From positions 1 through 39,162 of the IMG/VR virus record IMGVR_UViG_3300025635_000063: 39,162 nucleotides of DNA, one strand, 5' to 3'. Position 1 is the first letter of the stretch, and each line of letters opens with the position of its first letter. Source of the stretch: a virus. Taxonomy: Duplodnaviria; Caudoviricetes. Both the position numbers and the translations under genes were made by a program. This document shows, in pieces, positions 1-39,162 of the stretch. Under the pieces are notes generated by a model. It was given only the letters and a program-made list of their open reading frames with translations, was not told where the DNA came from and ran no database searches.

Positions 1-1224
1 ATTCAACGCGGTCGGCACTAACTGTTGCGAGACAACCCGGCAGGGGGTGTACGCTCCAGACCCGTGTGTGTAGTTCGTGCCTGCATTGGCCGCGTCCGGC
101 ACGGTGTAGGTATCAGAAAAGATCGTCGTGCGGAAGGTCGTGTTCGTCGTGGCGTACACCACGGCGCTATAGGCCCCTTGATTGCCTGCGGAGTCAAAAT
201 CGTTGACCGCATATCCGTACACCGTACCCGACGCGAGGCCCGTATCCGCATAACTGGTATTGGCCCCGCTCAAGGTGCGAGCGGCGGAGGTCGGCGTACA
301 CGCAGCCCCCGTACAGCGGAGAATGTTTTGCCCAACCACACCGCCTACATCGGTTCCATTGACCCAGGTCAGGTTGATCTGCCCTGCACTGGCTGTCGCC
401 GCCAAGGAGGTTACTTGGCTTGGCGCGACGGTATCGCCGGGGGCCGGAGCGGACCCGCACCCGATACGAGTATTGCCTACGGCAAAATCATCATAGTAAA
501 ATTTCCCCTCGCCGCCTTGGGCGATGATTTTCGTCCGGCTGATGCCGTCTGGCTGGCCAGACGCAAGAATGGCCTTGTTGTAATAGCCCAGCGTTTGTAC
601 GCCATCGATAAAGATTTCATATGACCCATTCGCTTGCCCTGCCGTGCCGAGATTGGCATGGGTTTCAATGCAGTACCATTGATTGTCATTAAGCGGGACG
701 CGGGCCATATTCACAGGATAATCGCAACTCGCTCCCGTGTTCCCGCTCGGGCAGAGCTGAGAGGGGATACCCTGTACGCTGACCATGAGCTCCCGGCTCC
801 CCCATTTGTGCTCCCAGACAATGCTAGGGGTATCGTCTGTGGCATAGTCATAGACGTTTTTGGAGTTGCCTGACGTATAGCCCCCGTTGACCGTCCTAAA
901 CCAAAACCGCTTCCAATGGTCTACCGATGAACGGAAGGTGCGCGTGATATGCACTCCAGATGATCCCGTGCCCCCATCAGGATAGAGCGCCCCCGTATAA
1001 TCGGCCTCGACTGAGTGCGTCCCAGAACGGGGGAGTGCTGTGGAGCGGGTAGGGTTGCAGCCATCTGCCCAAGGGGCACTCGCTGGCGCAATCCACACAC
1101 AGGCATCCGTCGTCCATCCGCTACTCAGGAGCGTGCCCGTGTCAAAGGTTTCATCAAAAAACGTCTCCGCCCCCGCCACGGTCGGGAACAGCATCACCAG
1201 CACACACACAAGTCGAATCAGCAT
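1..1224 (-). CDS. Secreted-type protein, truncated by window start: signal peptide + ConA/LamG (polysaccharide-lyase-like) jelly-roll + fibronectin type III domain
   Basis: Not in the ORF track (no stop in window). Manual translation from ATG 1224 (TAATG overlap with upstream stop) is open for 408 codons: MLIRLVCVLVMLFPTVAGA|ETFFDETFD...NQWYCIETH...YEIFIDGVQ...YYDDFAVGNTRIGC, then FN3-like DTVAPSQVTSLAATASAGQINLTW...YADTGLASGTVYGYAVNDFDSAGNQGAYS. Confidence 0.8.
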   Translation of the reverse strand, partial: MLIRLVCVLVMLFPTVAGAETFFDETFDTGTLLSSGWTTDACVWIAPASAPWADGCNPTRSTALPRSGTHSVEADYTGALYPDGGTGSSGVHITRTFRSSVDHWKRFWFRTVNGGYTSGNSKNVYDYATDDTPSIVWEHKWGSRELMVSVQGIPSQLCPSGNTGASCDYPVNMARVPLNDNQWYCIETHANLGTAGQANGSYEIFIDGVQTLGYYNKAILASGQPDGISRTKIIAQGGEGKFYYDDFAVGNTRIGCGSAPAPGDTVAPSQVTSLAATASAGQINLTWVNGTDVGGVVGQNILRCTGAACTPTSAARTLSGANTSYADTGLASGTVYGYAVNDFDSAGNQGAYSAVVYATTNTTFRTTIFSDTYTVPDAANAGTNYTHGSGAYTPCRVVSQQLVPTALN

Positions 1225-3473
1225 TAGTTCCTCGCAGCGCGTGTGGCGGCAGGATCGCCGCTCGATGATTGATAGGCTCCGATGTCGGGGCGGTCGGGGT
1301 AACAGGCGCGGCCACGGTAGTCGATACAGAGTACCCCGCCCGTTCCAGCTCTCCGAAGCAGGGATGTGGGCCGTAATCGGTAATCCGTTGTTGACATAAA
1401 GAGCGGGTCAGTTTGCAGCCCGTTTGCTTCTTTCCCTTGTGCCTGGAAGCCTGTGAATGTGGTGCTTTGCGTGGCATCTCCTCCGTCTGAATACTCAAAC
1501 ATGGCCGCGCCAGTCGTCACATAATCGTTGTAGTTGACAATGTTCGCGGCGAAGGCGGCGTTTGTCATGCTGCACATGGTCATGTTCTTTGTTGTCGCAG
1601 ACACCACGTTATTGACAATCTTCTGTGCGTTCGCTGCGAGCCCCAACATCAACCCATGCGTGACACCAGAAAAATAATTATTACTGACTATGGCGGTGTT
1701 GGCGGTACGGTAGCCGAGATACCCCACCGATTGCCCAGCCGTAACACAGGTCCCGATATTTGCCGTGGCGGGGTCAAGATCGTGGATCTTATTGCCAAAA
1801 TACACGGCGGTCGTCATGCCTGTACTTTCGGACTGTTCCCATAGCCCAATCGGCACATGCGACACATCGTTCAGTGAGGCGTAGAATCCAACAGAAGGCC
1901 GAGCCGTCGCGCCATGCGAGGCAATGCCGTACAGTGCATACGACAGCGTGTTCCCCCGCACCACATTACTATCTGTCGCAACGTCATTTGAGGCGAATCC
2001 GATCAGGCCCCCTTCGTTGTCTAGTGCCGCCATCGGTATCGCATGGCTTACGGTATTGTCTACTGCTTGGCAATAAGAACACCCCGACAGATCAAGTAAC
2101 CAGTCGCCGTAGGTGAGAGTCGAGTTGCGAACGATCATGCGAAGGCGAGCCGTCACATTCGTAACGTGGGCCATCAGTTGCGCCGTTACTCCATCCATAA
2201 TGAAATCGTTCGTGACGCCTTTTACAAGTTGATGCCCCGACGCACGTACATCCAGACCGTCTAGCGTAATAAAGGTTTTGCTGTTCACATCAATAGTCGC
2301 ACTTGTCGAACCGCCTATCGCATAGATGTTGCCGCCGTTGTAGGACTCAGAGCTTGGAATCCCTTCTGGGGAATAGACATAGATTGCAGCGTAGTTCGTT
2401 GCGTAGTTGCGGCGATACCAAATGGCGCTACTCGATAGGGAATTCTGATCGGCGGCTTGATCGGTAAACACAGTTCCCTTGAGCAGCATTGTTTCCGAGA
2501 GGCTCCCACTTAACACCCCAGCAGGAGTGCTCCACACACCATTGTTACGGTCTGTCCAGAGTGGACGCCACGCCACTTTCCCGATGTACACACTTGATCC
2601 GTTCGCTCCGGCTGCAAGAATTTGCAACGTGGGACCGCGGTTACTCGCATCGACGCGAACGCGGATAGATTTCGTGGTCCATTCCGTATCCGCCGTGGTG
2701 CAGGCGAGCGCCGCAATGTAGGCCCCGCCAGCCGTGCCCCATGTTGAGTACTCTCCGTTACCATCAACGCTATCAGACAAGCTCGTGGTATCGTTAAAGC
2801 GCACAGTGGCACTCGCCGTACCATCGCTCTTGCATTGATAGGTGAATTGATAGGCTTCCTCCTTGGTCGCATAGAAATCGTTGGAGAGTCTTGTCGGACC
2901 CGCCGTACCGTTGGTGACTTTGGCGCTGTAGTATTCACCTGTCGGCACAACGGTCGTCTCCTGGGCGATTGTTGCGGCTGTGCCTTTCGTCTCCGTCCAT
3001 GATGTAAAATTGGACGAATCCCCACCCACCAGTGACGCGAATCGGCCATTAACAAATATCCCTAGCGTGTCGGATTGCCCGCGTCCGTGCAGGAAATACG
3101 CATCATCGTCCTCTTCGTTCAGTCGCACATGCGCCGGGGCATACAGCACCACCCCAGACTGTTGCGTGATGGTAATTGGCGACCCGGACGTTCCAGAGTC
3201 CCCGACCGTCAGCCCATCTTTGAAGTCAGTCCCAACGATGGTTAAGGTATCCCCTGCTACGACTCCTCCACCGCCCCACACGATTGTCGAAGCCCCAGCC
3301 GTTCCCGCCCACGCCCCCACGCCCCCATCGCTCGCCGCGCATGTTGACGCCGTGCCATCCCCATTAAAGGCGCATGGGCCACTAGGACGCGATTGCGTCA
3401 CATACCACGTTGTTGCCTTAGCCCATGACGGCATCAGCAACGCTAGGAGGAGAAGGAGGAGAAGGATGGGCAT
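1224..3473 (-). CDS. Signal-peptide-bearing right-handed beta-helix (pectin-lyase/tailspike-like) protein with CBM-like insert and choice-of-anchor-Q-like C-terminus
   Basis: ATG 3473 overlaps the upstream stop (TAATG). N-terminus MPILLLLLLLALLMPSWAKA|TTWYV; Asn-rich beta-helix repeats (VVRGNTL, YFGNKIHD, IVSNNYF, IVNNVV); C-terminal DPLF...DYRLRPTS...DIGAYQ. Confidence 0.75.
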   Translation of the reverse strand: MPILLLLLLLALLMPSWAKATTWYVTQSRPSGPCAFNGDGTASTCAASDGGVGAWAGTAGASTIVWGGGGVVAGDTLTIVGTDFKDGLTVGDSGTSGSPITITQQSGVVLYAPAHVRLNEEDDDAYFLHGRGQSDTLGIFVNGRFASLVGGDSSNFTSWTETKGTAATIAQETTVVPTGEYYSAKVTNGTAGPTRLSNDFYATKEEAYQFTYQCKSDGTASATVRFNDTTSLSDSVDGNGEYSTWGTAGGAYIAALACTTADTEWTTKSIRVRVDASNRGPTLQILAAGANGSSVYIGKVAWRPLWTDRNNGVWSTPAGVLSGSLSETMLLKGTVFTDQAADQNSLSSSAIWYRRNYATNYAAIYVYSPEGIPSSESYNGGNIYAIGGSTSATIDVNSKTFITLDGLDVRASGHQLVKGVTNDFIMDGVTAQLMAHVTNVTARLRMIVRNSTLTYGDWLLDLSGCSYCQAVDNTVSHAIPMAALDNEGGLIGFASNDVATDSNVVRGNTLSYALYGIASHGATARPSVGFYASLNDVSHVPIGLWEQSESTGMTTAVYFGNKIHDLDPATANIGTCVTAGQSVGYLGYRTANTAIVSNNYFSGVTHGLMLGLAANAQKIVNNVVSATTKNMTMCSMTNAAFAANIVNYNDYVTTGAAMFEYSDGGDATQSTTFTGFQAQGKEANGLQTDPLFMSTTDYRLRPTSLLRRAGTGGVLCIDYRGRACYPDRPDIGAYQSSSGDPAATRAARN

Positions 3474-4330
3474 TATTTCCACTCCTGGATGACAAGATAA
3501 CCAGGGCACCCGTTGCCGCCTGCAAAGGTCGGAGCGCCCCCGCCACCACCAGCTCCGTACCCACCAGTACAGGCAGTGCCTACCGCATTCGATCCTCCAA
3601 TAGCCCCTGTCCCCATGAGCGAGTTGCCCCCCGTGCCACCGCCACCTTTCGTACCGTTTGACGCGCCTCCCGCGAGGTTCGCCATGGCCGCGCTATACCC
3701 ACTCATCGCAGGCACGATGCCGCCGTTCGCTGGTCCTGTGGCTCCCCCACCAGCCGAGCCACTTTCGATTCTCGTGGCATCGCCGCCCTGGACGAGGACT
3801 TGCGAGATCACCCCCGCCGCGCCAGTTCCCGTCCCCGTCACAGGGCATGTCTGAAGAATCGCATGGCACCCTCCAGCCCCACCGTTTGTTACGGTGCCTG
3901 TCCCTGGTGCGGTATTGGGTCCGTGGATACTGTAGGTCCCCAGCGGGAGTCCGGCGATGGTCGTGTGAAGATTCACGATTCCACCAGCCGATCCAGCCGC
4001 CGCGCCAACTCCTGCTGTGCCAATCGTTATGGTGAGGGCTGTCCCTGGCACGACGACAATCGGTTGTCGGACGACACAAACCGCGCCCCCTCCACCGCCT
4101 CCGCCGCCGCCTGGGTCGGCAGTATGTCCGCCTGCCCCGCCCCCGCCAGCGCCGCAGCCGGTGACACTGATGAAGTTACTGGTGGGAGTGTATGTACCGT
4201 TCGCCGTGAATGTCGTCGTCACAAGTGTCTGCCCAGGTGAGCCAGCAGCACTAGTGGTAACGGCTGCGGCCCACACCCCCGTCGGCAGGAGCAACGCGAG
4301 GATGAATATGGAAGTTAAGAGTTGTTTCAT
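3473..4330 (-). CDS. Signal-peptide-bearing glycine-rich (polyglycine-II sandwich-like) protein
   Basis: MKQLLTSIFILALLLPTGVWA|AAV; TFTANGTYT...GAGGGGAGG...GGGGGGGGA...VVPGTALTITIG...GGNGCPGYLVIQEW, a pattern typical of phage glycine-rich adhesin domains. Confidence 0.75.
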   Translation of the reverse strand: MKQLLTSIFILALLLPTGVWAAAVTTSAAGSPGQTLVTTTFTANGTYTPTSNFISVTGCGAGGGGAGGHTADPGGGGGGGGGAVCVVRQPIVVVPGTALTITIGTAGVGAAAGSAGGIVNLHTTIAGLPLGTYSIHGPNTAPGTGTVTNGGAGGCHAILQTCPVTGTGTGAAGVISQVLVQGGDATRIESGSAGGGATGPANGGIVPAMSGYSAAMANLAGGASNGTKGGGGTGGNSLMGTGAIGGSNAVGTACTGGYGAGGGGGAPTFAGGNGCPGYLVIQEWK

Positions 4331-4340
4331 GGTCGCCCCT

Positions 4341-4865
4341 TTAATACATCGCATACATCACCGCCGTGGTTAGGCCAGAGCTGGCCGTGGTTATTACGTA
4401 GTAGTAGCTGAAGTTCGCTGTCACAACAGGGCACGCATCGGAGGTGGCTGTGGTTCCTGTGAGGGTCAGCGTACAGAGCAGCACCCCGTTAGAGGCTGTC
4501 GAACTGAACGCCCCATAGAGCTTCATGGTCTGTGCAATCGCGCCTGCGCCGGTCAGGACACCCATGAAGGTCTTGGAGCCTGTAGGCACCGCGACAGCGG
4601 CAGAGGTGGTATCGGTGATTTGTGATTCGACGGTCGTTTGCCGAACCACGCCACCGCTGGTTTGGAGCAGGTTATTCGTCTGTTCCTCACCGGAGATGAG
4701 GGTGCCGAGGGTCACACGCAAGTTGCCTGAGGTATCGCAACTTAACAGCCCCATGGCCGTAAGATCGGCAAACGTTGGTGCGGCGGTTCGCACATCGCAC
4801 ATCGCGGCCCATGACTCAGAGGCCGTCCAGACGGCCATCAGCACTAGAACCCTCATCCATTTCAT
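4341..4865 (-). CDS. Signal-peptide-bearing beta-rich Thr/Ala/Ser protein
   Basis: GGAGG RBS before ATG 4865; MKWMRVLVLMAVWTASESWA|AMC; four Cys in the mature part. Confidence 0.7.
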   Translation of the reverse strand: MKWMRVLVLMAVWTASESWAAMCDVRTAAPTFADLTAMGLLSCDTSGNLRVTLGTLISGEEQTNNLLQTSGGVVRQTTVESQITDTTSAAVAVPTGSKTFMGVLTGAGAIAQTMKLYGAFSSTASNGVLLCTLTLTGTTATSDACPVVTANFSYYYVITTASSGLTTAVMYAMY

Positions 4866-4890
4866 ATGCGGCCCTCCTTGAATCCTCACG

Positions 4891-5829
4891 CTAACCTCCG
4901 TCATGGGTGTAAATAACGCAGCCTTGTAACTTCACGGTGCCGCCTGTCGGGAAATCGGTGATTGCCAGAATGGCGCTAGCCTGTCCTGATCCGCTCGCGT
5001 AGCAAGTCACCTGCGTCGAGGCTGAGGCCACAGATCCGACCACTTGCGTATAGTTTGCTTTCGTCATGCCGGAAAACATGACCGCTTGCCCCATAAAGGG
5101 ACTCATAAGCGTGGAGGCGCGAAACAACAGCCCTGTAATCAGGAGATTTCCCGATGCCGTGGTATGCGTAAAGGACGAGGTGATGATGTTGAACCAAGCG
5201 GTAATCTTGTTGCCGGAGATTTCGAGATAGCCCGTCTGCGTGGTGTAGGCTACCGAGAGATCGCCAGGGGTGACACAGGTCAAGACCGGCGTCCATCCGT
5301 CCAACCCCTTGCGGAGATTCAACACCTGCAGGTAGGTGCCGTCGTATTGCACGGTGACGAGATCCCCGATGCGGAGTTCTCCGCCCACGAGGGCCAGCGT
5401 GCCGTTATGACAGGTCTTAGCGGCCAGCCCTGAGATCGCCACCGTCGTACTGCCCGTATTTGTCGCGCCGACGATAAAGCTGAACTTCTGGCCTGCCACA
5501 TACGCCGTAATGGCAGGCGAAGGCGTCAACGTGATCGCGTTACCCGTCCCGCCGACCGTGCCGACATACACGCCGGTCCCGTCCTGCACGTTCCCAATGT
5601 TGCAGGAGTCGGTGCGGGCGCTGCCTGCCCCCAATCCCGTGAACTTGTAGGTGGCCATCGGGATATTGGCTGTGATGGTCGTTTGTCCGTCCTTGCAAAT
5701 GCGGTTACTCATCGCCGTCGCCGCATCGGCGGTATAGGCGTTGAACACTGCCGCCATGATGGGCGTATCCGTAATGACGGGTTGCCCTGTGCTATTGACG
5801 ACATACACCCCTGAGCCGTTATCTGACAT
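4891..5829 (-). CDS. Tail fibre / tailspike-adaptor protein
   Basis: Follows the ejection genes; N-terminal MSDNGSGVY...GQPVITDT...DGQTTITANIPM resembles podophage fibre anchors; Thr/Gly beta-rich; no signal peptide. Confidence 0.65.
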   Translation of the reverse strand: MSDNGSGVYVVNSTGQPVITDTPIMAAVFNAYTADAATAMSNRICKDGQTTITANIPMATYKFTGLGAGSARTDSCNIGNVQDGTGVYVGTVGGTGNAITLTPSPAITAYVAGQKFSFIVGATNTGSTTVAISGLAAKTCHNGTLALVGGELRIGDLVTVQYDGTYLQVLNLRKGLDGWTPVLTCVTPGDLSVAYTTQTGYLEISGNKITAWFNIITSSFTHTTASGNLLITGLLFRASTLMSPFMGQAVMFSGMTKANYTQVVGSVASASTQVTCYASGSGQASAILAITDFPTGGTVKLQGCVIYTHDGG

Positions 5830-5831
5830 CG

Positions 5832-7250
5832 TTAGTTCCCCTGGTTCGCCAGTTGTGAAGCCGTTGCGCCAGTGATCGGCGTGCCTCGCTTCAGCAATTC
5901 ATCGAGAATGGCCTGATACCTTGGATTGATCCCTGACGTTGCGAAGTTCTGATAGGGGTTCGACAACACCAGCGACCGTGCCGGACTGCGTAACAGCGGC
6001 AAGGCGGCAGCAGCCATGCCAGCAGGCCCACCAGCGGCCCCATAGCCCACCGTCCCTAGCAAGGCTGAGGCGGCAGCATCAGTGCCACTCACGCCCGATG
6101 ACGGCACCCGCGCCCCTTCCCGCATCACCGATGGGAAGGCTTCGGCCATTTGCCCGATGGTCCTGAGTTCGCCGCTTTTCGCGGCCATGCCTGCTTTGTC
6201 GAGTTGTCGCCCGATGATGGGAGCGGAGATGTTTTCGTCACCAAAGTTCAACGCCTTCTCCACATCGTGGATCTTGGCAATCTTAGTCCGCGCTTCGGTC
6301 AACGCCTTGACGAGATCCTCGCGGCCATTCGCCTTCGCAATGTTGACAATATCTTTATGGATCGACGCGGCTTGAGCATCGAAGGCTCGTGCGGCGTCCC
6401 GCGCCTCAGAGTTGCCCATCTTCGACGCTTTCCATGCGTCACTCGCACTCTCTCGCGCCTTGGCGAGCTGCCCCACAAGATCCTTTTCGTGGAAGCGCGG
6501 GAACCACTCCATCTTGTCGGTAGGCTTGAGCTGTGAGACTTCTTCGTAGACTTTCCCCGCTTGTTTCCGTGCGGCCCGTAAGGTGTCCTCTGTCAATGGC
6601 GCATCGTCAGCCAAGCCAAGGGCCTTCTTCGCCAGGGCATTCGTCACGGCCTGATTGCGTTTGGCCGCTTCCTGGCCTACGGCGGCTTTCCCTGCCACGC
6701 TTTCGAGCTTGTTGGTGAGCCATGAGGGGTTGACGGTAGACGGCGGCACCACATAGCCCGCCTTGCGGCCTTCTTTGAGCGTTTCAGCCGCAACGGGATT
6801 GAGCAGGGATTTCCCAGCCCCCATGACCTTACTGGCGATGCCTGCCACAGCGGGCACTACGCCTTGCATCGCCCCAGTGATCGCGATACGTCCTATATCC
6901 GGTTTATTCGCTTCAGGGATGACGCTTCCAGCCGGTGTCAGTCCGGTTGCCTGGCTGATCGTTTCACCTAATGCCGCCCCTGCCATCGCCCCAGGCACGC
7001 CACCAATGGCCGTCCCTGCCGTCGCGCCCAATGCAGGCAACGCCCCTTCGCGCACGAATCGACCCGCGTATTGCGGCAAGGACTCAGCCTGCTTTGCGCC
7101 CGCTATCGCCATTTTGTAGTCAAGGGAGTTGGCGTGAGCCTTGAGCGCGTTGAGATCGACGGGCGCAACAGACGCGACTTCAGGCGCGTTCAACCATGCG
7201 GGAGTTCCGCTAGGCTGTGCCTCAATCACTGGGGCGTCTTGCCATCCCAT
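5832..7250 (-). CDS. Internal virion / DNA ejection protein
   Basis: 472 aa, Ala/Gly-rich helical with hydrophobic GxxxG stretches; synteny with P22 gp16-type genes. Confidence 0.6.
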   Translation of the reverse strand: MGWQDAPVIEAQPSGTPAWLNAPEVASVAPVDLNALKAHANSLDYKMAIAGAKQAESLPQYAGRFVREGALPALGATAGTAIGGVPGAMAGAALGETISQATGLTPAGSVIPEANKPDIGRIAITGAMQGVVPAVAGIASKVMGAGKSLLNPVAAETLKEGRKAGYVVPPSTVNPSWLTNKLESVAGKAAVGQEAAKRNQAVTNALAKKALGLADDAPLTEDTLRAARKQAGKVYEEVSQLKPTDKMEWFPRFHEKDLVGQLAKARESASDAWKASKMGNSEARDAARAFDAQAASIHKDIVNIAKANGREDLVKALTEARTKIAKIHDVEKALNFGDENISAPIIGRQLDKAGMAAKSGELRTIGQMAEAFPSVMREGARVPSSGVSGTDAAASALLGTVGYGAAGGPAGMAAAALPLLRSPARSLVLSNPYQNFATSGINPRYQAILDELLKRGTPITGATASQLANQGN

Positions 7251-8773: not shown

Positions 8774-9097
8774 TTAGTACCCCTGTGGTTTCAAGTAATC
8801 GTAGGCACTGGGATCTGTTGCCATGCCCGTTCCTTCGCCCATGACGGGATCTGGTGCTCGCATCGCCATCGGACGAGGAGTCGCCGGTCGCTGCATCTGC
8901 CGCATCCCGTACATCTGCAAGCCGTTGCCGAGGGCGGTGTTAAGCCCGCCCAATATGCCCGTACCTTGGGGCTGCATACCGCGTTGCATCTGCATCGCCA
9001 TCGCAATACGTTGGCGTGGGTCCATCCCCATCGGCGCTTGTGCGGGTTCGGGCGTCGGCATCGCCGGGTTGGTCGTGACAGTCCGTGGGTCGATCAT
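8774..9097 (-). CDS. Small Met/Pro/Gln-rich protein, probable virion-internal protein
   Basis: AGGAG RBS before ATG 9097; its stop abuts the start of the next gene (8773). Confidence 0.55.
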   Translation of the reverse strand: MIDPRTVTTNPAMPTPEPAQAPMGMDPRQRIAMAMQMQRGMQPQGTGILGGLNTALGNGLQMYGMRQMQRPATPRPMAMRAPDPVMGEGTGMATDPSAYDYLKPQGY

Positions 9098-9632
9098 ATG
9101 CACTCTCCTGGGCTAATCGGATACGGGTGATACTCGTAATGGCAGCGGCGGTATCGGCAGCATTGCGGTAGATCCACCCTTTGACCGTCTCATTCTTAAT
9201 CTCGGCAATCTGTCTCAACACCTCCGCCCCATGCTGCCCATCATGTTCGGCGTGGAATCGCACACAGGGGAGCGGGCCTACAATGGCCTCCATTGCATCA
9301 ACTTGAGCAGTCGTAAACGTGCGGCATTCCAAGACCGCGCAATAGCCGAGGAGCACGCGGGGGTCGAGGTGTTGGATGAAGTAGTATTGAGCACCGGCAA
9401 TGGCGGCGGCGGTGAAGTCATACGGGATCGTTTCGATGCCAAGCGCGGCGAGGTCTTGCTTGAGCCAGTCGGCGTGTCCTTTTTCCTCATCGCGTTTCTC
9501 CTCCATGCCCGCCAGGTCCAGCAGCGGATCGGTTGCCACCATGAGCGAATGGCAGAATTGTAAATGCCGCACCAGTTGCGCTTTCGTCTGAATCGGGGGG
9601 AGCGGATACTGTGCGAGAATGTCGTGAATCAT
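8940..9632 (-). CDS. Heme-oxygenase-like diiron enzyme (iron-containing redox enzyme family)
   Basis: Motifs DEEKGHADWLKQDLAALG, IAGAQYY...LLGYCAVLE and RFHAEHDGQH match the E/H/D metal-ligand spacing of HO-like diiron oxidases (PqqC/CADD/TenA fold). Confidence 0.7.
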   Translation of the reverse strand: MIHDILAQYPLPPIQTKAQLVRHLQFCHSLMVATDPLLDLAGMEEKRDEEKGHADWLKQDLAALGIETIPYDFTAAAIAGAQYYFIQHLDPRVLLGYCAVLECRTFTTAQVDAMEAIVGPLPCVRFHAEHDGQHGAEVLRQIAEIKNETVKGWIYRNAADTAAAITSITRIRLAQESAYDRPTDCHDQPGDADARTRTSADGDGPTPTYCDGDADATRYAAPRYGHIGRA

Positions 9633-11169: not shown

Positions 11170-12738
11170 CTAAATCCCTTGCCCGGGTTCATACATCATA
11201 GACGCGCCCATCCATTGCACCGTGAGCACGTTCGACGTGATCTTGACCTTGCCTGAGATCCATCGCCCTTGCCATTCTGACGGCGAGGACCATTGCCGGA
11301 CGATCTCAGAGGATGCCGCCCAGTATCCGCTATCCCAGAGCGAGGTATCCCATACGGCCCCTGCGGTCGTCACATACGTCACCGTCCCGCTGATCGGTTC
11401 GTCCTTAAAGTCTACGTCAATGTCTGCGCCGTAGGCGACTGATCCATCCACCACCAGGAACGGCATGAACAGTTTGACATGCTTCTGGCGCGAGTCGCCA
11501 AAGTCTTGAAAGGCTTGTTTGGCGTAGAAGTCAATCGCGTTGCCGTTGTCTGCCGTACCGGTCCAGGCTTTATAGACCGTCGTGCCTTTGCAGAAATACA
11601 GCTCTCCGCTCAGAATGCCGAAGTCCTCCGCATTCCAGCCGGTGAAGCGGCACCAGGACTTCGTAATCGTATTCATCACGTATTGCTGATGGGTGCCGTC
11701 CTCAGACTGCGGGATGTTGACCAACAGCGCGTCATACTTCGGGAAGGCAATGGCTCGCCAGCCGTAGACCGTGCCATAGAGCCGTGCGGCTGCGGTAAAG
11801 GCGTCTTGGATCTTGTAGGAGAGTGCAAACTTGTTGCGGTCGTCGCCGCTTTGCAGTAAGGCCGTGAGCGGGAACGTCCCGTTTTCCGTAATGACCACGC
11901 AATCGCCGCCGTACTGAATCACACAGCGCCGACCCAGTGGCCGTCCAATGGTATAGCTGCCCACCTTACCCCAGGTCGTCGCGCTCGAGGGGTTGGTGCC
12001 TTGATAGACGGCTACTTCACCCTCAGAGGAGAGAAATACGGCAAAGTCATCAGGGCCGCTCCCAGCGTCCCGCGTCCAGGTTGCCATCGCCATGAGATAG
12101 CCACCACTCTTGAACTCGCCGGACAGGTCGTATTCAGTCAACGCCCCCCCTGCGGCCCCTGCGGCGAGATACCAGAACGAAAGCGATTGTTTCGGGATGA
12201 AGAACAGTCGGCCCTTAAAGACGTTGACCCCGATGAAGTCCTCGACCGCGTTGCCGGTATAGCCGGTCAGGGCGGGGGAGGTCGCGTGCGTCACCGCCGT
12301 CCATGCCGATCCGTCGTAATACGCGGGCTTATCGACCCCATTCACCGCAATCAGCCAGTTGCTTGTGCCGTCGCCAAAGCGTTCATGCTGGTGCTTGCCG
12401 TTGGTGCGGACCAGCACAGCAGCCCCTACAGCCCCCGCTGTGGTCACTTCGTAGACCCCCGAAGAAGTTGAGCAATACAGCTCATTCGTGCCGGTCAGCG
12501 TGTTGTAGGGCATCAGCGTCTTGCCGTTGCCCGTCATGCCGGTAGCGTGAGAGGCATGGCCCCCTCGAAACTCCACATAGGAGGGGCGGGGATACCAGTT
12601 CTGCAACTCAATGGCGTCCGTGGGTTTCATGGAAGCGAGGGCGTCACGCGCATTCCAGCCCCCCACCGGCGCAGCGTAGGACTTCATTATGGAGACTTGC
12701 TGTTGCGGGGCACCTTTAGCACGTAATGGCATTCTCAT
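11170..12738 (-). CDS. Tail nozzle / DNA-stabilization protein (tail tubular B, P22 gp10-like)
   Basis: About 522 aa from ATG 12738; APVGGWNARD...NWYP start and beta-propeller-like repeats; synteny. Confidence 0.7.
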   Translation of the reverse strand: MRMPLRAKGAPQQQVSIMKSYAAPVGGWNARDALASMKPTDAIELQNWYPRPSYVEFRGGHASHATGMTGNGKTLMPYNTLTGTNELYCSTSSGVYEVTTAGAVGAAVLVRTNGKHQHERFGDGTSNWLIAVNGVDKPAYYDGSAWTAVTHATSPALTGYTGNAVEDFIGVNVFKGRLFFIPKQSLSFWYLAAGAAGGALTEYDLSGEFKSGGYLMAMATWTRDAGSGPDDFAVFLSSEGEVAVYQGTNPSSATTWGKVGSYTIGRPLGRRCVIQYGGDCVVITENGTFPLTALLQSGDDRNKFALSYKIQDAFTAAARLYGTVYGWRAIAFPKYDALLVNIPQSEDGTHQQYVMNTITKSWCRFTGWNAEDFGILSGELYFCKGTTVYKAWTGTADNGNAIDFYAKQAFQDFGDSRQKHVKLFMPFLVVDGSVAYGADIDVDFKDEPISGTVTYVTTAGAVWDTSLWDSGYWAASSEIVRQWSSPSEWQGRWISGKVKITSNVLTVQWMGASMMYEPGQGI

Positions 12739-14271: not shown

Positions 14272-14946
14272 TTATTCGTCGATCAAATCGCTGGCTGAAA
14301 TGTCGTCCGATTTCTTGCGACCGCGTGCCGATGGCTTCTTCGCGTCCTTCATCTCCGCTTGCATCACCTCGATTTTCGCGGTGAGCGTGGTGACGGTGTT
14401 CAAGAGCTGCTCGTTCGTCCGTTGCAGCGCCGTCATGTCTTGCGTCAGTTTACCCTTATCCTGCGAGGCCGTCATCCAGTTTTTTGCCTTGTTCTTGAGT
14501 TCAATCGCGCCCATGCCGATCTTGCGCAAGCCTTCGTCGTTGAGATCGGACAAGTCCTCAACGGTCCTGATCCCCACCCGCAGAAGAATCTCGACCTGTG
14601 CGGGGCTAATGACAGGCCATGACTTGATGGGCGTACCGTGGACCGGCATCTCCTGCCCGGCCTTCCAGCGTTTGTAGCTTTCCTCGTAGGCGTTCGCATG
14701 GGAGGCGTCGAGCCGTCCCGCCTGTACGTCCAGCTTGTTCTGTGCCAGCCATTGTTCCACCTTAAAGACGACGGAATCGGTAGCCCCAAGCTGCCGGACT
14801 GTGACCATATCCACATCCCGCGCCACATAGCGCCCCGCTTCTTCACTTTCCTTCTTCTGTTCCTTCGCAATCGTCTGAAAGCTCACAAAAGCGGGCTTGC
14901 CGTTCTTCGTGCTTAACTCTCCGGCTATGTCTGCGATACCGTTCAT
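14272..14946 (-). CDS. Phage protein with HhH-like segment and C-terminal coiled coil
   Basis: GTPIKSWP...GIRTVEDLSDLNDEGLRKIGMG; ATGA-coupled to the upstream gene. Confidence 0.5.
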   Translation of the reverse strand: MNGIADIAGELSTKNGKPAFVSFQTIAKEQKKESEEAGRYVARDVDMVTVRQLGATDSVVFKVEQWLAQNKLDVQAGRLDASHANAYEESYKRWKAGQEMPVHGTPIKSWPVISPAQVEILLRVGIRTVEDLSDLNDEGLRKIGMGAIELKNKAKNWMTASQDKGKLTQDMTALQRTNEQLLNTVTTLTAKIEVMQAEMKDAKKPSARGRKKSDDISASDLIDE

Positions 14947-16043
14947 ACTGCAACCTCCTCAGCAAAAGGGACGATAAAGTTCAAATTGGGGAACTGGGCA
15001 CGGATTTCTCGCTCAAAGTTCCACGCCGTCAGAATCACGCCCGCTGGTGGACGTTCCTTGAGCATCTGCATCGACGCAATCGGGATCTTCGTGCCAGGGA
15101 TAAACCGGCCCTGCTTGGCAGGGGTGTTGTCTACGCAGTAGTCGATCACCTTGGCGAGTCCAAAGTGATGAATCAAGGTGGTCGCCTTGGCCGTAGCCCC
15201 AAAGCAGGCCAGCGTGCCGTCTACGTCGAACACTTGCCGCTGGATCACGCGCTTGGCTTGATAGATGCGCTCCTGAAACGCTCGCCAGTCTAGCGGCTCT
15301 TCCGGCAGGACCATCCCCACCCCAGGCCGTTCGCAATAGACGCGAATGGAGCCGCCATGCGTCCCTAGAAACTCATAATTCGTGATGACCAGGCCATACC
15401 GCTTCAGGAACGGCACCCACGGCTTGAGGGTGTGATAGTCACGATGCTCGTGGTAGATCATGTCGAAGGCCCCCATGTGCATCATGGCGGGCAGGTATTG
15501 CACTTCAAAGACCAGTACGCTGTCATCGTGCATCAGCCGGTCAATGCCGGAGAACACATCGCGTAAATCGTCCACATGGGCCAATACGTTGTTGGCAACG
15601 ATCAAATCGACGGGCGGCAAGGTCATGGCGAGGGCATGGGAGAACGGGGCTTTCACGCCCACCGTGGCGCAAGGGTCCACGCCGTAGGCATTGATCCCCA
15701 CCCGCTGCAATTCTTCCAGATAGAGGCCGTTATTGCTGCCGATTTCGAGGCCGGTCTTGAGCGACGGATAGCGGTTGTGAATCCGTTGCGCGGCGTCAGC
15801 CAAGTGTGGCCGGTTCGCTTCGGGCGTGCTGTACTTGTAATCCACCCAATCCACCGTCACCTTTTCGCGTAACTGCACATGGCCGCATCGCAAGCACTCC
15901 TGCACATCCAGCGGCAACCGTTCGGCGTGGGTATCTGGTTCAGCGGGAAAGCTGTTCGCAATCGGGGTGGGTGTCAGCGAGAGCATGACGCGGGATTCCC
16001 CAGCGCACATGCGACAGGCCCATTCAGAGTAGTGTGCGCCCAT
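14943..16043 (-). CDS. NDP-sugar C-methyltransferase (TcaB9/EryBIII/NovU-type)
   Basis: Zn ligands CRMC...CLRC-GHVQL, SAM motif LEIGSNNG, NNVLAHV, DMIYHEHRDY, THGGSIRV, FGATAKATT, VDNTPAKQG, LTAWNF. Confidence 0.9.
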   Translation of the reverse strand: MGAHYSEWACRMCAGESRVMLSLTPTPIANSFPAEPDTHAERLPLDVQECLRCGHVQLREKVTVDWVDYKYSTPEANRPHLADAAQRIHNRYPSLKTGLEIGSNNGLYLEELQRVGINAYGVDPCATVGVKAPFSHALAMTLPPVDLIVANNVLAHVDDLRDVFSGIDRLMHDDSVLVFEVQYLPAMMHMGAFDMIYHEHRDYHTLKPWVPFLKRYGLVITNYEFLGTHGGSIRVYCERPGVGMVLPEEPLDWRAFQERIYQAKRVIQRQVFDVDGTLACFGATAKATTLIHHFGLAKVIDYCVDNTPAKQGRFIPGTKIPIASMQMLKERPPAGVILTAWNFEREIRAQFPNLNFIVPFAEEVAV

Positions 16044-16519
16044 TATGGCTTGACCCCCTCAATCCGCATATCCCGTGCGGCGATATGAAAGACCGGCTCC
16101 ATCACCGTGACAGACTGATAGCCCACGCTATTGAGGGCTTCCGTCAGTTCGTCCTGTGACCAGCACCATTGATGCATCATGTCAGGCTTGCCGTCGCGGG
16201 GATCACCAAAGATCCCAAACAAGGTGAGCCGCAGATTCTTTTCGCCGTTGACGATCATGCGGGCAATCTTGTCGAGGCAGGGCAGCTCTAACACCAGCTT
16301 CCCCCCAGGCTTGAGCACGCGAAACCACTCAGTCAGCACTTGCGAGGCGTCTTTACGATGCAAATGCTCAAGTAAGTGAATCGCCCACAGTTCGTCGGCG
16401 TGATCCGTTGGGAAGGGCAGGGGGAAGGCATCGCTGTTGATGTCCTGGTTGCCGTGGCGGTCGATATTGACGAATCCAGGCAGGTATTTATCCCCCGCGC
16501 CCACATTCAAACGAATCAT
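16043..16519 (-). CDS. Class I SAM-dependent methyltransferase
   Basis: RLNVGAGDKYLPGFVNID, HLLEHL, EWFRVLKPGGKL; type commonly linked to glycan loci. Confidence 0.85.
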   Translation of the reverse strand: MIRLNVGAGDKYLPGFVNIDRHGNQDINSDAFPLPFPTDHADELWAIHLLEHLHRKDASQVLTEWFRVLKPGGKLVLELPCLDKIARMIVNGEKNLRLTLFGIFGDPRDGKPDMMHQWCWSQDELTEALNSVGYQSVTVMEPVFHIAARDMRIEGVKP

Positions 16520-17364
16520 GCGGCCACCCGCTCAATCAGTTCGCGCCATTGCTGGCCGACGTTGGCCGGTGAGAACTTCTCAATGTAGGCTTGCCCTTCC
16601 GCCACCAAGTCGTTGAGATGATCTTTTTCCGACTGTGCCCACTTCAGGCCGGTGATGAAGTTGCCCACCCAGGCCACTTTCTTGAACTCAAAGAGCGAGG
16701 GGAGTTGATCGCCGCAGACCGGAAAGCATCCGGCGCGTAAGGCGTTGACCAGTCTATTAGGGCTTTTGTACTCGGTGCCTTTGCGCGTGGGAATCAGGAC
16801 AATGTGCGCCCGGTGGAGTTGTTCGGCCTGTGCGTCAGGCGTCCAGCGGATATAATCGGCCTTCCAGTGATGGTTTTCGCCAGTCACTACCGTAAGGTCC
16901 ATGTCCTTCAAATACGGCATCCACGGCGACAATTCTTTCAAGTTGATCTGATGCCCGTACCACAACAGCCGCTCGGCTCCGTTCGCGTGCGGGGTCGTCA
17001 AGGCTTCTTCATACGGGTCGGGGATGACCATATCGGCGTGCCGGTCAAAGTACTTGTAGAGCCGTCCTGACATATTGTCCGTCGGCGTGACAATGGCATC
17101 AGCCAGCCCCACCATCTCACGATAGACCGGACCCCACACAGGATGAGGGAACAAATCATCGCCTACGTCAAAGATGATCTTCAGCCCGTCCGCTTTCGAG
17201 TCTTTGGCAAGCTGAATGTCGTCAGGCGTCGGCTTGGAGAAGATCAAGACTTGCGCTTCGCCACCGTTCACCGTCCCGCCAATCGCCTCAGCAGGGATAG
17301 CAGCGCGATACCGATAACTCGCAAAGGTCGGCCCACTCCGATGCACAAAGACGGCTTTGGTCAT
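16516..17364 (-). CDS. GT-B fold glycosyltransferase (GT4-like)
   Basis: ASYRYR, IIFDVGDD, ADAIVTPT, VIPDPYE, LLWYG, KSPNRLVNALRAGCFPV. Confidence 0.75.
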   Translation of the reverse strand: MTKAVFVHRSGPTFASYRYRAAIPAEAIGGTVNGGEAQVLIFSKPTPDDIQLAKDSKADGLKIIFDVGDDLFPHPVWGPVYREMVGLADAIVTPTDNMSGRLYKYFDRHADMVIPDPYEEALTTPHANGAERLLWYGHQINLKELSPWMPYLKDMDLTVVTGENHHWKADYIRWTPDAQAEQLHRAHIVLIPTRKGTEYKSPNRLVNALRAGCFPVCGDQLPSLFEFKKVAWVGNFITGLKWAQSEKDHLNDLVAEGQAYIEKFSPANVGQQWRELIERVAA

Positions 17365-18149
17365 ACCCTCTTCCCCTGTTTCTTCCGTTCATCCAGAATC
17401 GCGGCAATCAGCCCGCCGCCTTTGGCTTCGATGTGTATATCAGGAAGGAGAGAGTACGTCACTAATTGAAATTCATTGGCCTGTGCCGCCATCGCCATAT
17501 TGCACTCAAACCGCTGTCCACCCACGTAGACATCCTGAGTCACTCCCGTGCGGGAGCCGTCAAAGCGTTTTGTCCCGTCTGCCGCATTACAAGAGTCATA
17601 CCCGTAGAGCACAAAGTTGCGGTAGCCCATGATATAGGCCAGGGCAATCGCCCGCAGCCCCGACGTAGACCCGCCTCCGCAGGCGTACTTGGTCGTGTCC
17701 TTGAACGCTTTCATCTCTTCGCTGGTGCCAAAGGCGTTCCAGAGCACCACATGGCAGTCGCTCAGATAGTCAAAGACTTCGACCGCGACACGCGAGGACA
17801 GCAGATAGAGGGTGTGCTGATTCTTCCGCTTGAGGTTCACACGGCGATCACGCGGTTCAACGGATACAAAGAGATCCGGTTCGATCCCTTGTTCGCAGAG
17901 ATAGTCATGCGCCCCTTTGACGGCGCAAATCGGGCGTCCTTTGGCGCGTTCCGCTTTGATCTGGTCGATGACGGTGGGGAGCGAAGGGCCACTCCCCACA
18001 CAGACCATCGTTCCGTCATGCGCGACAAGCGCAGGCACTAACTCCGGCAACCCACGAGCCAAATTCTTCTGGATCACCTCGATATGTTGCGAGGCATTGC
18101 CGAACTGGCTCACGTCGATGGTCAACGGTTTCAGGGTTGCCGTTGTCAT
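17361..18149 (-). CDS. DUF115/Maf (MptE-like, CstII/GT42-related) putative glycosyltransferase
   Basis: VCVGSGPSL, ICAVKGAHDYL...GIEPDL, GGGSTSGLRAIALAYIMGYRNFVLYGYDSC; ATG 18149 follows the upstream stop. Confidence 0.75.
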   Translation of the reverse strand: MTTATLKPLTIDVSQFGNASQHIEVIQKNLARGLPELVPALVAHDGTMVCVGSGPSLPTVIDQIKAERAKGRPICAVKGAHDYLCEQGIEPDLFVSVEPRDRRVNLKRKNQHTLYLLSSRVAVEVFDYLSDCHVVLWNAFGTSEEMKAFKDTTKYACGGGSTSGLRAIALAYIMGYRNFVLYGYDSCNAADGTKRFDGSRTGVTQDVYVGGQRFECNMAMAAQANEFQLVTYSLLPDIHIEAKGGGLIAAILDERKKQGKRV

Positions 18150-18150
18150 G

Positions 18151-18648
18151 TTACGCCGGGTTCGTGTACGGGTGGACGTACATCGGCGTCGCGGCCACAA
18201 CCGTGAGGGCGGTAGCCAACGAACCCGTTACCGGCAAGTACACCCCAGCCACGAGGCAGTTGGAGATGGTGGCATCATCCAACTCGCCCGCGTTGGCCGT
18301 AGTGAACAAGGGCACGTTGTCCGCGCAATCGTCGGACAAGCGCATGAGGAACGTCCCCTGACGCATCGCCCAGCCGTAGTAGGCCGAGGCGATGGAGGTC
18401 TGAATACAGCCGACCTTCTTCCCGCTTCCGGCGTCAGCCGCAAGGGTCGTGGTCAACGGAGCCGCCGTGCCCTGCTCATAGATCAGGACGGCGCAATACG
18501 CGGAGATCGCTTCTCCGGCAACAATGTACTCAGCCACGCCACCGGCATCCGTATGCACGATGGTGCCGACAGGAATGCGAGCGGTAGAACTCGAATCCGT
18601 CAGCGGGGGAGTGACAAGCGGACTGATGATTTTTGATGCGACAGCCAT
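18151..18648 (-). CDS. Putative capsid decoration/cement protein
   Basis: 165 aa directly after the major capsid gene; GGAG RBS; Ala/Thr/Gly beta-rich, YYGW motif. Confidence 0.6.
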   Translation of the reverse strand: MAVASKIISPLVTPPLTDSSSTARIPVGTIVHTDAGGVAEYIVAGEAISAYCAVLIYEQGTAAPLTTTLAADAGSGKKVGCIQTSIASAYYGWAMRQGTFLMRLSDDCADNVPLFTTANAGELDDATISNCLVAGVYLPVTGSLATALTVVAATPMYVHPYTNPA

Positions 18649-21065: not shown

Positions 21066-21493
21066 GCCGTGGGCGTGCTCCTGACCACATCTGCTGTCAT
21101 GCCCTGGTCTACCATTTCGCTATAGAGTTGTGCCCGTTTCGCCGTGGGCATCTTCTCAATCGTCTCCTCGACATGGGCGTCAATCATCGCGTCGAGCTTC
21201 GCATCGCCCTCGTCAATCCGGCGCTTCGCATCGCGTTTCATCTCAGGGTCGTAGGGGACGCAATCGTTCCGCTTCAGGTCCTCTCTCCAGGCGTCATGCG
21301 AGGTGATCGGCCTGCCGTCGATCGGAGAATCAAAACACAACTCCGCCGCCACCTTGACCAACGTCGGGGCGGTAATGATCTGCGTGGCTTCCTGACCGCA
21401 TTCACACATCCAGACCGATGAATGCTCTGAGACTGTTGAGAACCGCTGGAAGCGATGACCGTTCAAGCACGAGTAGAGATAACTTGGCATCAC
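21062..21493 (-). CDS. FmdB-like zinc-ribbon phage protein
   Basis: MPSYLYSCLNGHRF...CECG, then SPIDGRPITS. Confidence 0.65.
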   Translation of the reverse strand: MMPSYLYSCLNGHRFQRFSTVSEHSSVWMCECGQEATQIITAPTLVKVAAELCFDSPIDGRPITSHDAWREDLKRNDCVPYDPEMKRDAKRRIDEGDAKLDAMIDAHVEETIEKMPTAKRAQLYSEMVDQGMTADVVRSTPTA

Positions 21494-38073: not shown

Positions 38074-38298
38074 TCACCGCGCCTCATCATAGCAAGCACT
38101 GAGCTTCTCCGTCATGCTCTTATAGCAGGTCCGATCGACCGCATAGACCTCAGGCCGCACGGTCCCCGACTGGTCATAAGTGATCGTCGGGGGACAGAAG
38201 TATTGGTTCCCGCTTGAGTGGCTGCACCCCGTCAAGCTCACGATCAACAGCGGCCATAGCATCCTGCGTCTGTTTGAGTTCAAGAGCTGCCAGCGCAT
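38074..38298 (-). CDS. Outer-membrane spanin (Rz1-like lipoprotein)
   Basis: RRRMLWPLLIVSLTGC lipobox; overlaps the 3' part of the Rz-like gene. Confidence 0.75.
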   Translation of the reverse strand: MRWQLLNSNRRRMLWPLLIVSLTGCSHSSGNQYFCPPTITYDQSGTVRPEVYAVDRTCYKSMTEKLSACYDEAR

Positions 38299-38401
38299 TG
38301 CGCTTCTCCCTCCGTGTATTGGTGCGAGATTCCATGAGAGTCAGGATTTGTGGCAAGGCCCCGATCAGCCCCGCCACAATCGCCAGGATCAGCGCGGCCA
38401 T
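38174..38401 (-). CDS. Inner-membrane spanin (Rz-like)
   Basis: MAALILAIVAGLIGAL TM segment followed by a charged helix; AAGGAG RBS. Confidence 0.7.
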   Translation of the reverse strand: MAALILAIVAGLIGALPQILTLMESRTNTRREKRNALAALELKQTQDAMAAVDRELDGVQPLKREPILLSPDDHL

Positions 38402-38402
38402 G

Positions 38403-38618
38403 TTACTCCTTCGGCACCGGCACGGCAATCGGCTGCGGGTGCTGCGAGTTCGAGACGTTGGCATCCTTGCTCGCCATACCTAACGCCGCCAGGAAGGCCG
38501 ACACAAAGGCCACGCCCCAGCCCGCGCCATCGCTCGGCAGGTTCGGCCCCAGCGCCACAAAGTAATTGACGATCCCACCGACAATGCCGATCACCGTTGT
38601 TTTCCAAGACCCGTTCAT
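38403..38618 (-). CDS. Holin
   Basis: SWKTTVIGIVGG...AFLAALGMASKD; two TM segments; AAGGAG RBS; lysis context. Confidence 0.7.
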   Translation of the reverse strand: MNGSWKTTVIGIVGGIVNYFVALGPNLPSDGAGWGVAFVSAFLAALGMASKDANVSNSQHPQPIAVPVPKE

Positions 38619-38631
38619 GTTCGCTCCTTGG

Positions 38632-38898
38632 TTAGTGTCCATTCGTATACGACATCCTCTCTATCGCTCTGAGTCGGTTTTCTTGGTCGTCGGTACGCTT
38701 CTCCAGCTCGGCAGTGCGGGGGATGAGTGACGCACGCTCATTGAGAGTAAGGCGGATGTCGTTAAGATCTCGCTCGATTGCGCTAGACCATAACCCAACA
38801 ACCAGCCCGCACAGAGCAATGATAAGCCCACAAGCACCAAGGAAGGGCCGACTGAAGAGGGCGTTGATCTCGTCTTTCTGGTTCTCATGTCCAGGCAT
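38632..38898 (-). CDS. Single-TM coiled-coil protein (holin/antiholin-like)
   Basis: FLGACGLIIALCGLVVGLW, then coiled coil ...ENRLRAIE. Confidence 0.55.
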   Translation of the reverse strand: MPGHENQKDEINALFSRPFLGACGLIIALCGLVVGLWSSAIERDLNDIRLTLNERASLIPRTAELEKRTDDQENRLRAIERMSYTNGH

Positions 38899-38937
38899 TC
38901 CGTTGACACCATCGCTCCTTTCTCGGCAATAGCGCCG

Positions 38938-39039
38938 TCATCGCTTGTTCTTCTTCGGGCATGTAAAGGAGATATGTCGATATACCTCATCATGTTTCAA
39001 CGGTGCTCCACAGTGGGGGCATTGATAGGTTTTCGCCAT
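38938..39039 (-). CDS. 33-aa C2HC zinc-finger peptide
   Basis: MAKTYQCPHCGAPLKHDEVYRHISFTCPKKNKR; TAATG overlap with the endolysin stop. Confidence 0.5.
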   Translation of the reverse strand: MAKTYQCPHCGAPLKHDEVYRHISFTCPKKNKR

Positions 39040-39161
39040 TAGATGACCGCACTCCCTTGCATGAGCGCAGCCAGTTCCCGCGCCCGCTTCTTGACCTGCT
39101 TGGCCCAAAGCGAATCCAACATCTCTACCGCCGCCGTCTCATACTCGCCACGCTCCACCGC
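39039..39161 (-). CDS. Endolysin, T4-lysozyme-like (GH24), C-terminal fragment
   Basis: ...YETAAVEMLDSLWAKQVKKRARELAALMQG resembles the T4 lysozyme C-terminus; truncated by the window end. Confidence 0.8.
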   Translation of the reverse strand, partial: AVERGEYETAAVEMLDSLWAKQVKKRARELAALMQGSAVI

Positions 39162-39162
39162 C

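Follow-up and report, generated by a model that had tools for sequence, protein, structure and literature searches.

Textbook accounts have tailed phages build every part of the virion in the cytoplasm, where the jelly-roll proteins that cement or decorate capsids are also made; the inovirus proteins pIII and pVIII carry Sec leaders, form disulfides in the periplasm and remain anchored in the membrane until assembly of the extruded particle. Among the described systems, those closest to the locus analysed here are the RcGTA head spike, in which the fibre Rcc01080 docks by its residues 2-10 on a pentameric base, Rcc01079 (PMC7296036), the phage protein XepA, whose authors suggest transient binding to vertices (PMC6834076), and the HFTV1 capsid turret, which combines a base with a head protein that has carbohydrate-binding and deacetylase-like domains (PMC12494034). 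Here we describe a cassette of four consecutive genes, A to D, in a complete virus record of 39,162 bases (IMG/VR record IMGVR_UViG_3300025635_000063, hereafter the window), each of which is predicted to begin with a Sec-type signal peptide. In the literature searched, whose scope left out most subscription papers and supplements, we found no description of Sec-exported appendages or of such a cassette in tailed phages: effects of dsbA are treated as effects on the host receptor (PMC13412088), a leader is reported only on the endolysin (PMC10820202), and the accessible parts of PMC11849493, PMC5735904 and PMC8812541 contain nothing on such a cassette.

The reading that we favour, and to which we give an even chance, is that this mobile late cassette encodes a glycan-binding and glycan-cutting head appendage that is exported through Sec, matured in the periplasm and assembled at lysis; it is taken to include a mixed outcome in which only A and B are mounted on the head, C and D being free. 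The features concerned are these.

4341..4865, minus strand: gene A, founding gene of the cassette, 174 amino acids; predicted Sec leader 1-20, stalk-like region 21-71, jelly roll 72-174
4806..4865, minus strand: predicted signal peptide of A, cleavage after SWA, from the leader heuristic and conservation in homologues
3473..4330, minus strand: gene B, 285 amino acids; predicted Sec leader 1-21, N-terminal motif 22-30, glycine-rich fibre domain 43-281
4241..4267, minus strand: nine-residue motif at the predicted mature N-terminus of B, consensus x-G-V-L-T-P-A-A-G/N
1224..3473, minus strand: gene C, 749 amino acids, 10 cysteines; predicted Sec leader 1-20, right-handed beta-helix, probable CBM4/9-like insert
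1227..1259, minus strand: arginine-containing C-terminal tail of C, common to C- and D-type cargo of other cassettes
1..1224, minus strand: gene D, 408 amino acids seen, 3' end missing; predicted Sec leader 1-19, polysaccharide-lyase-like domain ~20-256, FN3 ~260-360, beginning of a further domain

The four genes come after the tail fibre gene in the late operon, with 25 nucleotides between fibre and A and 10 between A and B, and the partial TAATG coupling noted in the original prediction is found at the B-C and C-D junctions. All start with ATG, 5-9 nucleotides downstream of a purine-rich ribosome-binding site, and a scan for promoters and terminators stayed at chance level, with no separate promoter above chance on the cassette strand. 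The Sec-type N-termini first noted in these four genes are present as quoted: by our own heuristic for the n-, h- and c-regions, which is not SignalP, A, B, C and D score 3.98, 4.90, 4.89 and 4.85, whereas among 22 other late genes 20 score at most 2.38 and two have no candidate cleavage site. A score of 3.9 is reached by only 2 of the 2021 internal windows of these proteins. By the same heuristic, the leaders are tripartite, with a hydrophobic core and small residues at positions -3 and -1. They are short, with A-x-A at their end, and A to D show neither a lipobox nor a twin-arginine motif nor any additional transmembrane segment. The four proteins are thus predicted to carry leaders of the Sec type cut by signal peptidase I (SPase I). 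The several cysteines mentioned in the original prediction exist, but their content is ordinary (1.4-2.6% compared with 0-3.5% in other late genes), and the cysteine count alone was rejected as evidence.

The stronger evidence comes from homologues, numbered P in the protein collection and L for fetched loci. Four of the 82 homologues of A in the protein collection start inside the protein and were set aside; 73 of the 78 full-length ones have a leader (two called by eye, with the leader downstream of the called start), and all 73 contain at least two cysteines. The other five, one of which matches the stalk only, are leaderless and have no cysteine at all. The leaders of A homologues are on average only 23% identical over their last 17 residues, and 69 of 71 are distinct. 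A quick tree of the A domain places three leaderless proteins beside sisters that have leaders (support 100 and 96) and puts a fourth in another clade; Cys131 and Cys145 are replaced in both places of the tree that hold leaderless forms. As a single N-terminal segment is common to these four, loss of the leader itself may have happened only once. In P0035, the segment that starts the leaderless P0049, P0052, P0054 and P0058 stands behind a leader, and four cysteines are kept. A scan with P0058 gave stalk-repeat matches only and recovered no locus with a leaderless A. Alignments of A were also used to search collections of viral sequences, metagenomes and genomes; in the loci so found, each of the 37 different A genes whose start is intact has a leader, a count that leaves out seven A genes cut at the 5' end and two spurious matches. 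The leaders hold beyond A as well: they are present in all 10 B-domain matches in other loci, in 10 of 11 matches of C (the exception being a 78-residue fragment) and, among the 22 proteins listed, in 19 of the 20 others that match the first domain of D, the exception lacking its start. Since the sequences are related, Fisher p-values on such patterns, and on the arginine tail described below, were not taken as real probabilities. The leaders are evidently under selection, with their anatomy kept while the sequence diverges, and by the same comparison they are retained in dozens of otherwise unlike phages. That A to D truly reach an oxidising compartment, through Sec export and disulfide folding in the periplasm as originally proposed, is well supported, because the diverging leaders are conserved and are lost together with the cysteines.

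Gene A was not characterised in the original list of mature domains; we model it as a jelly roll. Residues 72-174 are predicted to fold as a single jelly roll with the conserved Cys131-Cys145 pair, and for most of positions 80-174 the pLDDT is around 90 or higher. Its best fold matches are XepA (Z 9.3, root-mean-square deviation 2.7, 95 residues aligned) and YomS (Z 9.1), at 7-8% identity, followed by the cement protein Bbp16 of BPP-1 (Z 8.7) and further down by the KHP40 cement protein (Z 8.0); among predicted structures of viral proteins, those nearest to A belong to small proteins of uncultured tailed phages, with TM values of at most 0.83 by target. Rcc01079 of RcGTA is absent among the fold matches listed, and no PDB sequence match fell below E 0.14. 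An Ena1-type pilus was the top Foldseek match (E 2e-3, TM 0.36-0.50), but it is absent from the VIA matches listed and was rejected. A is a phage-specific protein, modelled as a jelly roll similar to XepA, YomS and Bbp16. An extra N-terminal domain is found in the A homologues P0037, P0066, P0045, P0051, L098:9542-10438 and L112:1002-1841, which thereby have a leader-bearing, XepA-like dumbbell layout; in P0037 and P0066, the domain combined with that of A is PF27453 (XepA). A repeat in the stalk of A homologues is also seen in other phages (L139-L149), where it belongs to long proteins without a leader.

In B, residues 43-281 correspond to Gly_rich_2 (PF21722), with weak PHROG tail-fibre matches. 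The nine-residue motif in front of this domain recurs in the genes after A, where Ala8 is found in 34 of 34 genes, Thr5 in 29 and Gly2 in 27, the set excluding duplicates and L106. In that locus (L106:87-993), two tandem A genes, both with leaders, are directly followed by a C-type gene and there is no B. A motif score of at least 8 is reached by 32 of the 34 genes compared with 3 of 50 other leader-bearing genes, the score being drawn from the same sequences and four duplicate B genes having been removed from the comparison set. In most of the 34 genes the start of the motif coincides with the predicted cut or is only a few residues away, and the bodies behind the motif sort into 13 BLAST groups (84-1156 residues), of which masking has probably split a few. 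The motif is likely to be a docking peptide, a role suggested by its position and conservation. A complex prediction with four A domains and the N-terminus of B scored 0.00 and carries no weight either way.

The two larger genes appear to be of a different kind: C and D resemble secreted bacterial glycan enzymes, and A and B look structural. For C, the tailspike-like beta-helix of the original prediction stands as a beta-helix, but one that resembles secreted bacterial enzymes and not phage tailspikes: with ESM Atlas features at 0.97, it matches PF13229, DUF1565 and Pel9A-like structures (TM 0.45-0.57 by query), and all ten structures listed are bacterial. A single-sequence AlphaFold2 model of C reached a pLDDT of 33. 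No PHROG match to C was found, its leader leading straight into an enzyme-type start; a word-index search with C returned only itself, and a scan of viral contigs with a C homologue returned nothing. From these structural matches, C is likely to be a glycan-cleaving enzyme. In D, the FN3 domain was correctly recognised, and the supposed LamG domain is better read, from sequence comparison, as a polysaccharide-lyase-like beta-sandwich, perhaps of PL14/CIP1 type: D itself has no Pfam match and matches CIP1 at E 0.02, and a host homologue matches PF21294 at E 4e-4, below the cut-off. D homologues in cassettes reach lengths of 1000-1500 residues. Chromosomal homologues of a close relative of the first domain occur in 5 of 301 genomes, and in one complete genome the homologue adjoins genes for a glycosyltransferase and a UDP-sugar dehydrogenase; short stretches of the domain are 74-84% identical in DNA to Nitrospirota chromosomes. 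The pattern R-x(1-2)-R near the C-terminus, picked after inspection, is found in 7 of 17 large leader-bearing cargo proteins compared with 22 of 756 other genes. The arginine tail of C also occurs on a much less similar beta-helix in L099, and it is present on several long forms of D and absent from the short, host-type homologues. This tail is a candidate second docking tag.

The original prediction tied these genes to the tail and to the fibre encoded at 4891-5829; this link was rejected, since the cassette is missing from relatives that have the same fibre and nozzle, and its position shifts from one unrelated phage to another. No A domain was found in any of 82 loci fetched by nozzle or fibre. 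In 21 of them the sequence continues beyond the fibre for 1.5 kb or more, and in 20 this stretch encodes no protein with a leader; in the remaining one, a spanin-like protein is the only one to have a leader. Conversely, the cassette occupies late operons of phages with seven families of capsid protein, and its place there varies: it may follow the tail fibre or the capsid gene, separate terminase from portal, or lie within a group of head-tail connector genes. The close relative L109 has the same order of fibre and A, and the siphovirus carrier L088, which encodes a tail tube, has only A and a B of 129 residues, with no enzyme. The order of A followed by B is fixed, and one to four leader-bearing genes follow A in the 18 loci checked. 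As judged from these gene orders, the cassette is mobile and independent of tail type. In L098, L120 and L125-L128, its neighbours are small basic genes, the scanned flanks revealed no head or tail gene, and these loci could represent a different type of virus. In the related podovirus loci L034 and L063, leaderless genes are inserted among the ejection-protein genes some 3.0-5.0 kb after the nozzle gene, and one of these inserts starts like a beta-helix enzyme.

The host is likely to be Nitrospira. The L136 contig of a Nitrospira genome begins with 12 kb of housekeeping genes followed by phage genes, so its cassette lies in a Nitrospira prophage; L134 belongs to a genome of the Nitrospiraceae, and the early and lysis-region genes that it has in common with the window are 35-46% identical. 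Two short matches fall in a Deltaproteobacteria bin. A was found in one of 401 Nitrospirota genomes, the prophage carrier itself; it had no match among 50,697 GenBank phage records, and a single-protein scan with A returned this genome only. No CRISPR spacer match was found, the four short DNA matches checked lying outside any array, and no RNA holder of the sequence was listed.

How might such an appendage be made? Signal peptidase would expose the motif of B at its new N-terminus, and A would oligomerise into a jelly-roll disc, a pentamer by analogy with XepA and YomS, on which B would dock by its nine-residue peptide, in the manner of the RcGTA head fibre and base. The arginine tails may hold C and D, enzymes of bacterial type, on this appendage. 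When the inner membrane fails, new capsids would meet the pre-folded parts and become decorated, and the appendage could help the virion to bind and cross the extracellular matrix of Nitrospira. If the cassette products are on the virion, the head is a likelier site than the tail, because relatives with the same fibre lack the cassette and the cassette shifts among head, packaging, connector and tail regions. The minimal form of A and B in L088 suggests that the core of the cassette is structural, and the intact leaderless A genes suggest that its job can be done without export, which would fit a part of the virion; it is this combination of a fibre-type B, tail independence, the minimal pair and viable-looking leaderless A genes that favours a head appendage. 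The more general proposal, to which we give slightly less than an even chance, is that many unrelated tailed phages of Nitrospira share a split-compartment, lysis-triggered assembly of an appendage that can be swapped between capsid families: base, fibre and glycan enzymes would pass through Sec and be folded by host Dsb enzymes, lysis would mix the compartments, and the leaderless, cysteine-free forms would be reversions to the cytoplasmic route.

Several observations weigh against a head appendage. Attachment of A to D to the virion is a prediction from sequence. Lysis genes, too, are found in late operons, and in this phage, as in L090, L104 and L101, they come directly after the cassette. 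The phage has a leaderless fibre of its own, no virion anchor is recognisable in C, whose look-alikes among the matches listed are all bacterial, and the D domain is 42% identical to a host chromosomal protein encoded beside polysaccharide-synthesis genes. The best structural match of A, XepA, is reportedly exported and absent from mature particles (PMC6834076), and Z values of 8-9 to the A fold are also reached by non-viral beta-sandwiches. The motif and tail patterns were defined after the sequences had been inspected, and the B motif lacks the two-residue leucine periodicity of the RcGTA peptide.

The alternative that survives best, unlikely though it seems to us, is that the late-exported complex stays off the virion, with A as a hub, B as an adhesin and C and D as depolymerases, and loosens the host envelope and the microcolony matrix for escape of the progeny. 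XepA, which is encoded in a lysis cassette (PMC6834076), would be its model, the more so as P0037 and P0066 have the two-domain XepA layout with PF27453, and the bacterial character of C and D and the lysis genes that often directly follow the cassette are consistent with it; an escape function accounts poorly for cassettes located behind the capsid gene, amid connector genes or in the interval from terminase to portal, for the minimal form without an enzyme, and for the fibre-type domain of B. Quite improbable, in our view, is a moron-like remodelling or masking of the surface glycans of the infected or lysogenic cell that would block superinfection: at least one carrier is a prophage and D is related to host proteins of polysaccharide gene clusters, but the genes are translationally coupled inside a late operon that has no separate promoter above chance on the cassette strand, and A and B are structural in type. 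We give still less credence to the leaders being uncleaved anchors that keep the proteins in the inner membrane or on vesicles carrying or wrapping virions; cleavage is predicted by the heuristic alone, yet the leaders are short and end in A-x-A, and the motif of B starts at or near the predicted cut in most of the 34 genes. Finally, that the leaders are start-calling artefacts or dead leftovers of recently captured host genes is hardly credible and already largely refuted: the short stretches of the first domain of D that resemble Nitrospirota DNA and the absence of the cassette from 21 podovirus relatives speak for it, but A is phage-specific and bears a leader, the A leaders keep their anatomy at a mean identity of 23%, and the starts have good ribosome-binding sites.

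The rest of the window is consistent with a podovirus. The late operon, on the minus strand, encodes terminase, portal, the major capsid protein (phrog_9953) and an SU10-type adaptor, and further a gene in the nozzle position, probable ejection proteins and the tail fibre; the neighbours of the cassette are as follows.

4891..5829, minus strand: tail fibre, ordinary, with the N-terminal anchor of its family and without a signal peptide; neighbour, outside the cassette
38074..39162, minus strand: end of a lysozyme-like endolysin and small lysis-region genes; a phrog_33534 match is common to this fragment and the L090 endolysin

The lysis-region end probably follows D across an assembly gap. As the lysis genes lie at the opposite end of the window, the genome is probably circularly permuted, with the gap cutting D; a second contig of a Logan run reaches 424 nucleotides beyond base 1 of the window, so D is truncated by the contig end. 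The first contig of this run, which spans 1126-5900, has zero differences from the window, of which that run may itself be the source; contigs from public runs agree with the assembly. Two methyltransferases (one of C-methyltransferase type), an MptE-like gene and glycosyltransferase-like genes lie among the head and tail genes (14943-18200 and 21490-22203, minus strand) and possibly modify glycans of the virion or the surface. A haem-oxygenase-like iron redox gene (8940-9632, minus strand; PF14518, below the cut-off) lies between probable ejection-protein genes. The gene in the nozzle position (11170-12738, minus strand) matches phrog_5107; this family bears the label 'amidase', which seems mistaken given that the gene is conserved in its position behind the adaptor.

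If the cassette decorates virions, their assembly is finished after the inner membrane breaks, a route that would be new for tailed phages should attachment hold, and secreted enzymes that depend on disulfides would be usable almost unchanged as host-range modules. Even if the complex serves escape instead, phages widely carry a secretion cassette directed at the matrix of nitrite oxidisers, organisms important to nitrogen cycling in wastewater, groundwater and soil. The A-B pair provides a marker for such phages and a small testable system, one domain of 100 residues and a peptide of nine.

Compared with known systems, the right-handed beta-helix of C recalls tailspikes of the P22 gp9 type, but C has a leader in place of the virion-binding domain and its look-alikes are bacterial; WceF is likewise exported and tailspike-like, with the glycan-processing beta-helix fold seen in C, but is encoded by a host gene (PMC7949094). 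Unlike the inovirus coat proteins, those described here belong to a lytic tailed phage and have soluble mature parts. With the capsid cement proteins Bbp16 (3J4U) and KHP40 (7DOU), A shares a single jelly roll (Z 8.0-8.7), but the carriers L089, L093 and L100 have a separate cement-like gene besides A. The HFTV1 turret is a precedent for glycan enzymes mounted on the head of a tailed virus, although this virus is archaeal, its hexameric base sits on hexons and no export is reported in the accessible part of its description (PMC12494034). XepA (PBSX, 6I56) and YomS (SPbeta, 6I5O) are, like A, products of late phage genes and give its best fold matches (Z 9.1-9.3), and XepA is exported (PMC6834076), as A is predicted to be; some A homologues also have two jelly rolls and PF27453. 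By contrast, A consists of one jelly roll and a stalk, with a leader and cysteine pairs, and is coupled to a fibre gene; the two linker-joined jelly rolls of XepA proper are not found in A, and for XepA, whose host has no outer membrane, the accessible part of the paper mentions no signal peptide (PMC6834076). The arrangement resembles the RcGTA head spike, in which a fibre docks by roughly its first nine residues on a small jelly-roll partner, independently of the tail, and where the spike binds a polysaccharide capsule, as polysaccharide binding is proposed here; in both cases, a short conserved N-terminal peptide is carried on interchangeable bodies next to a small jelly roll (PMC7296036). 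The RcGTA fibre binds by residues 2-10, with Ile/Leu-Gly repeats, and hence has no cleaved leader (PMC7296036), whereas here both partners have leaders and cysteine pairs, the motif is another one, and genes for enzymes follow.

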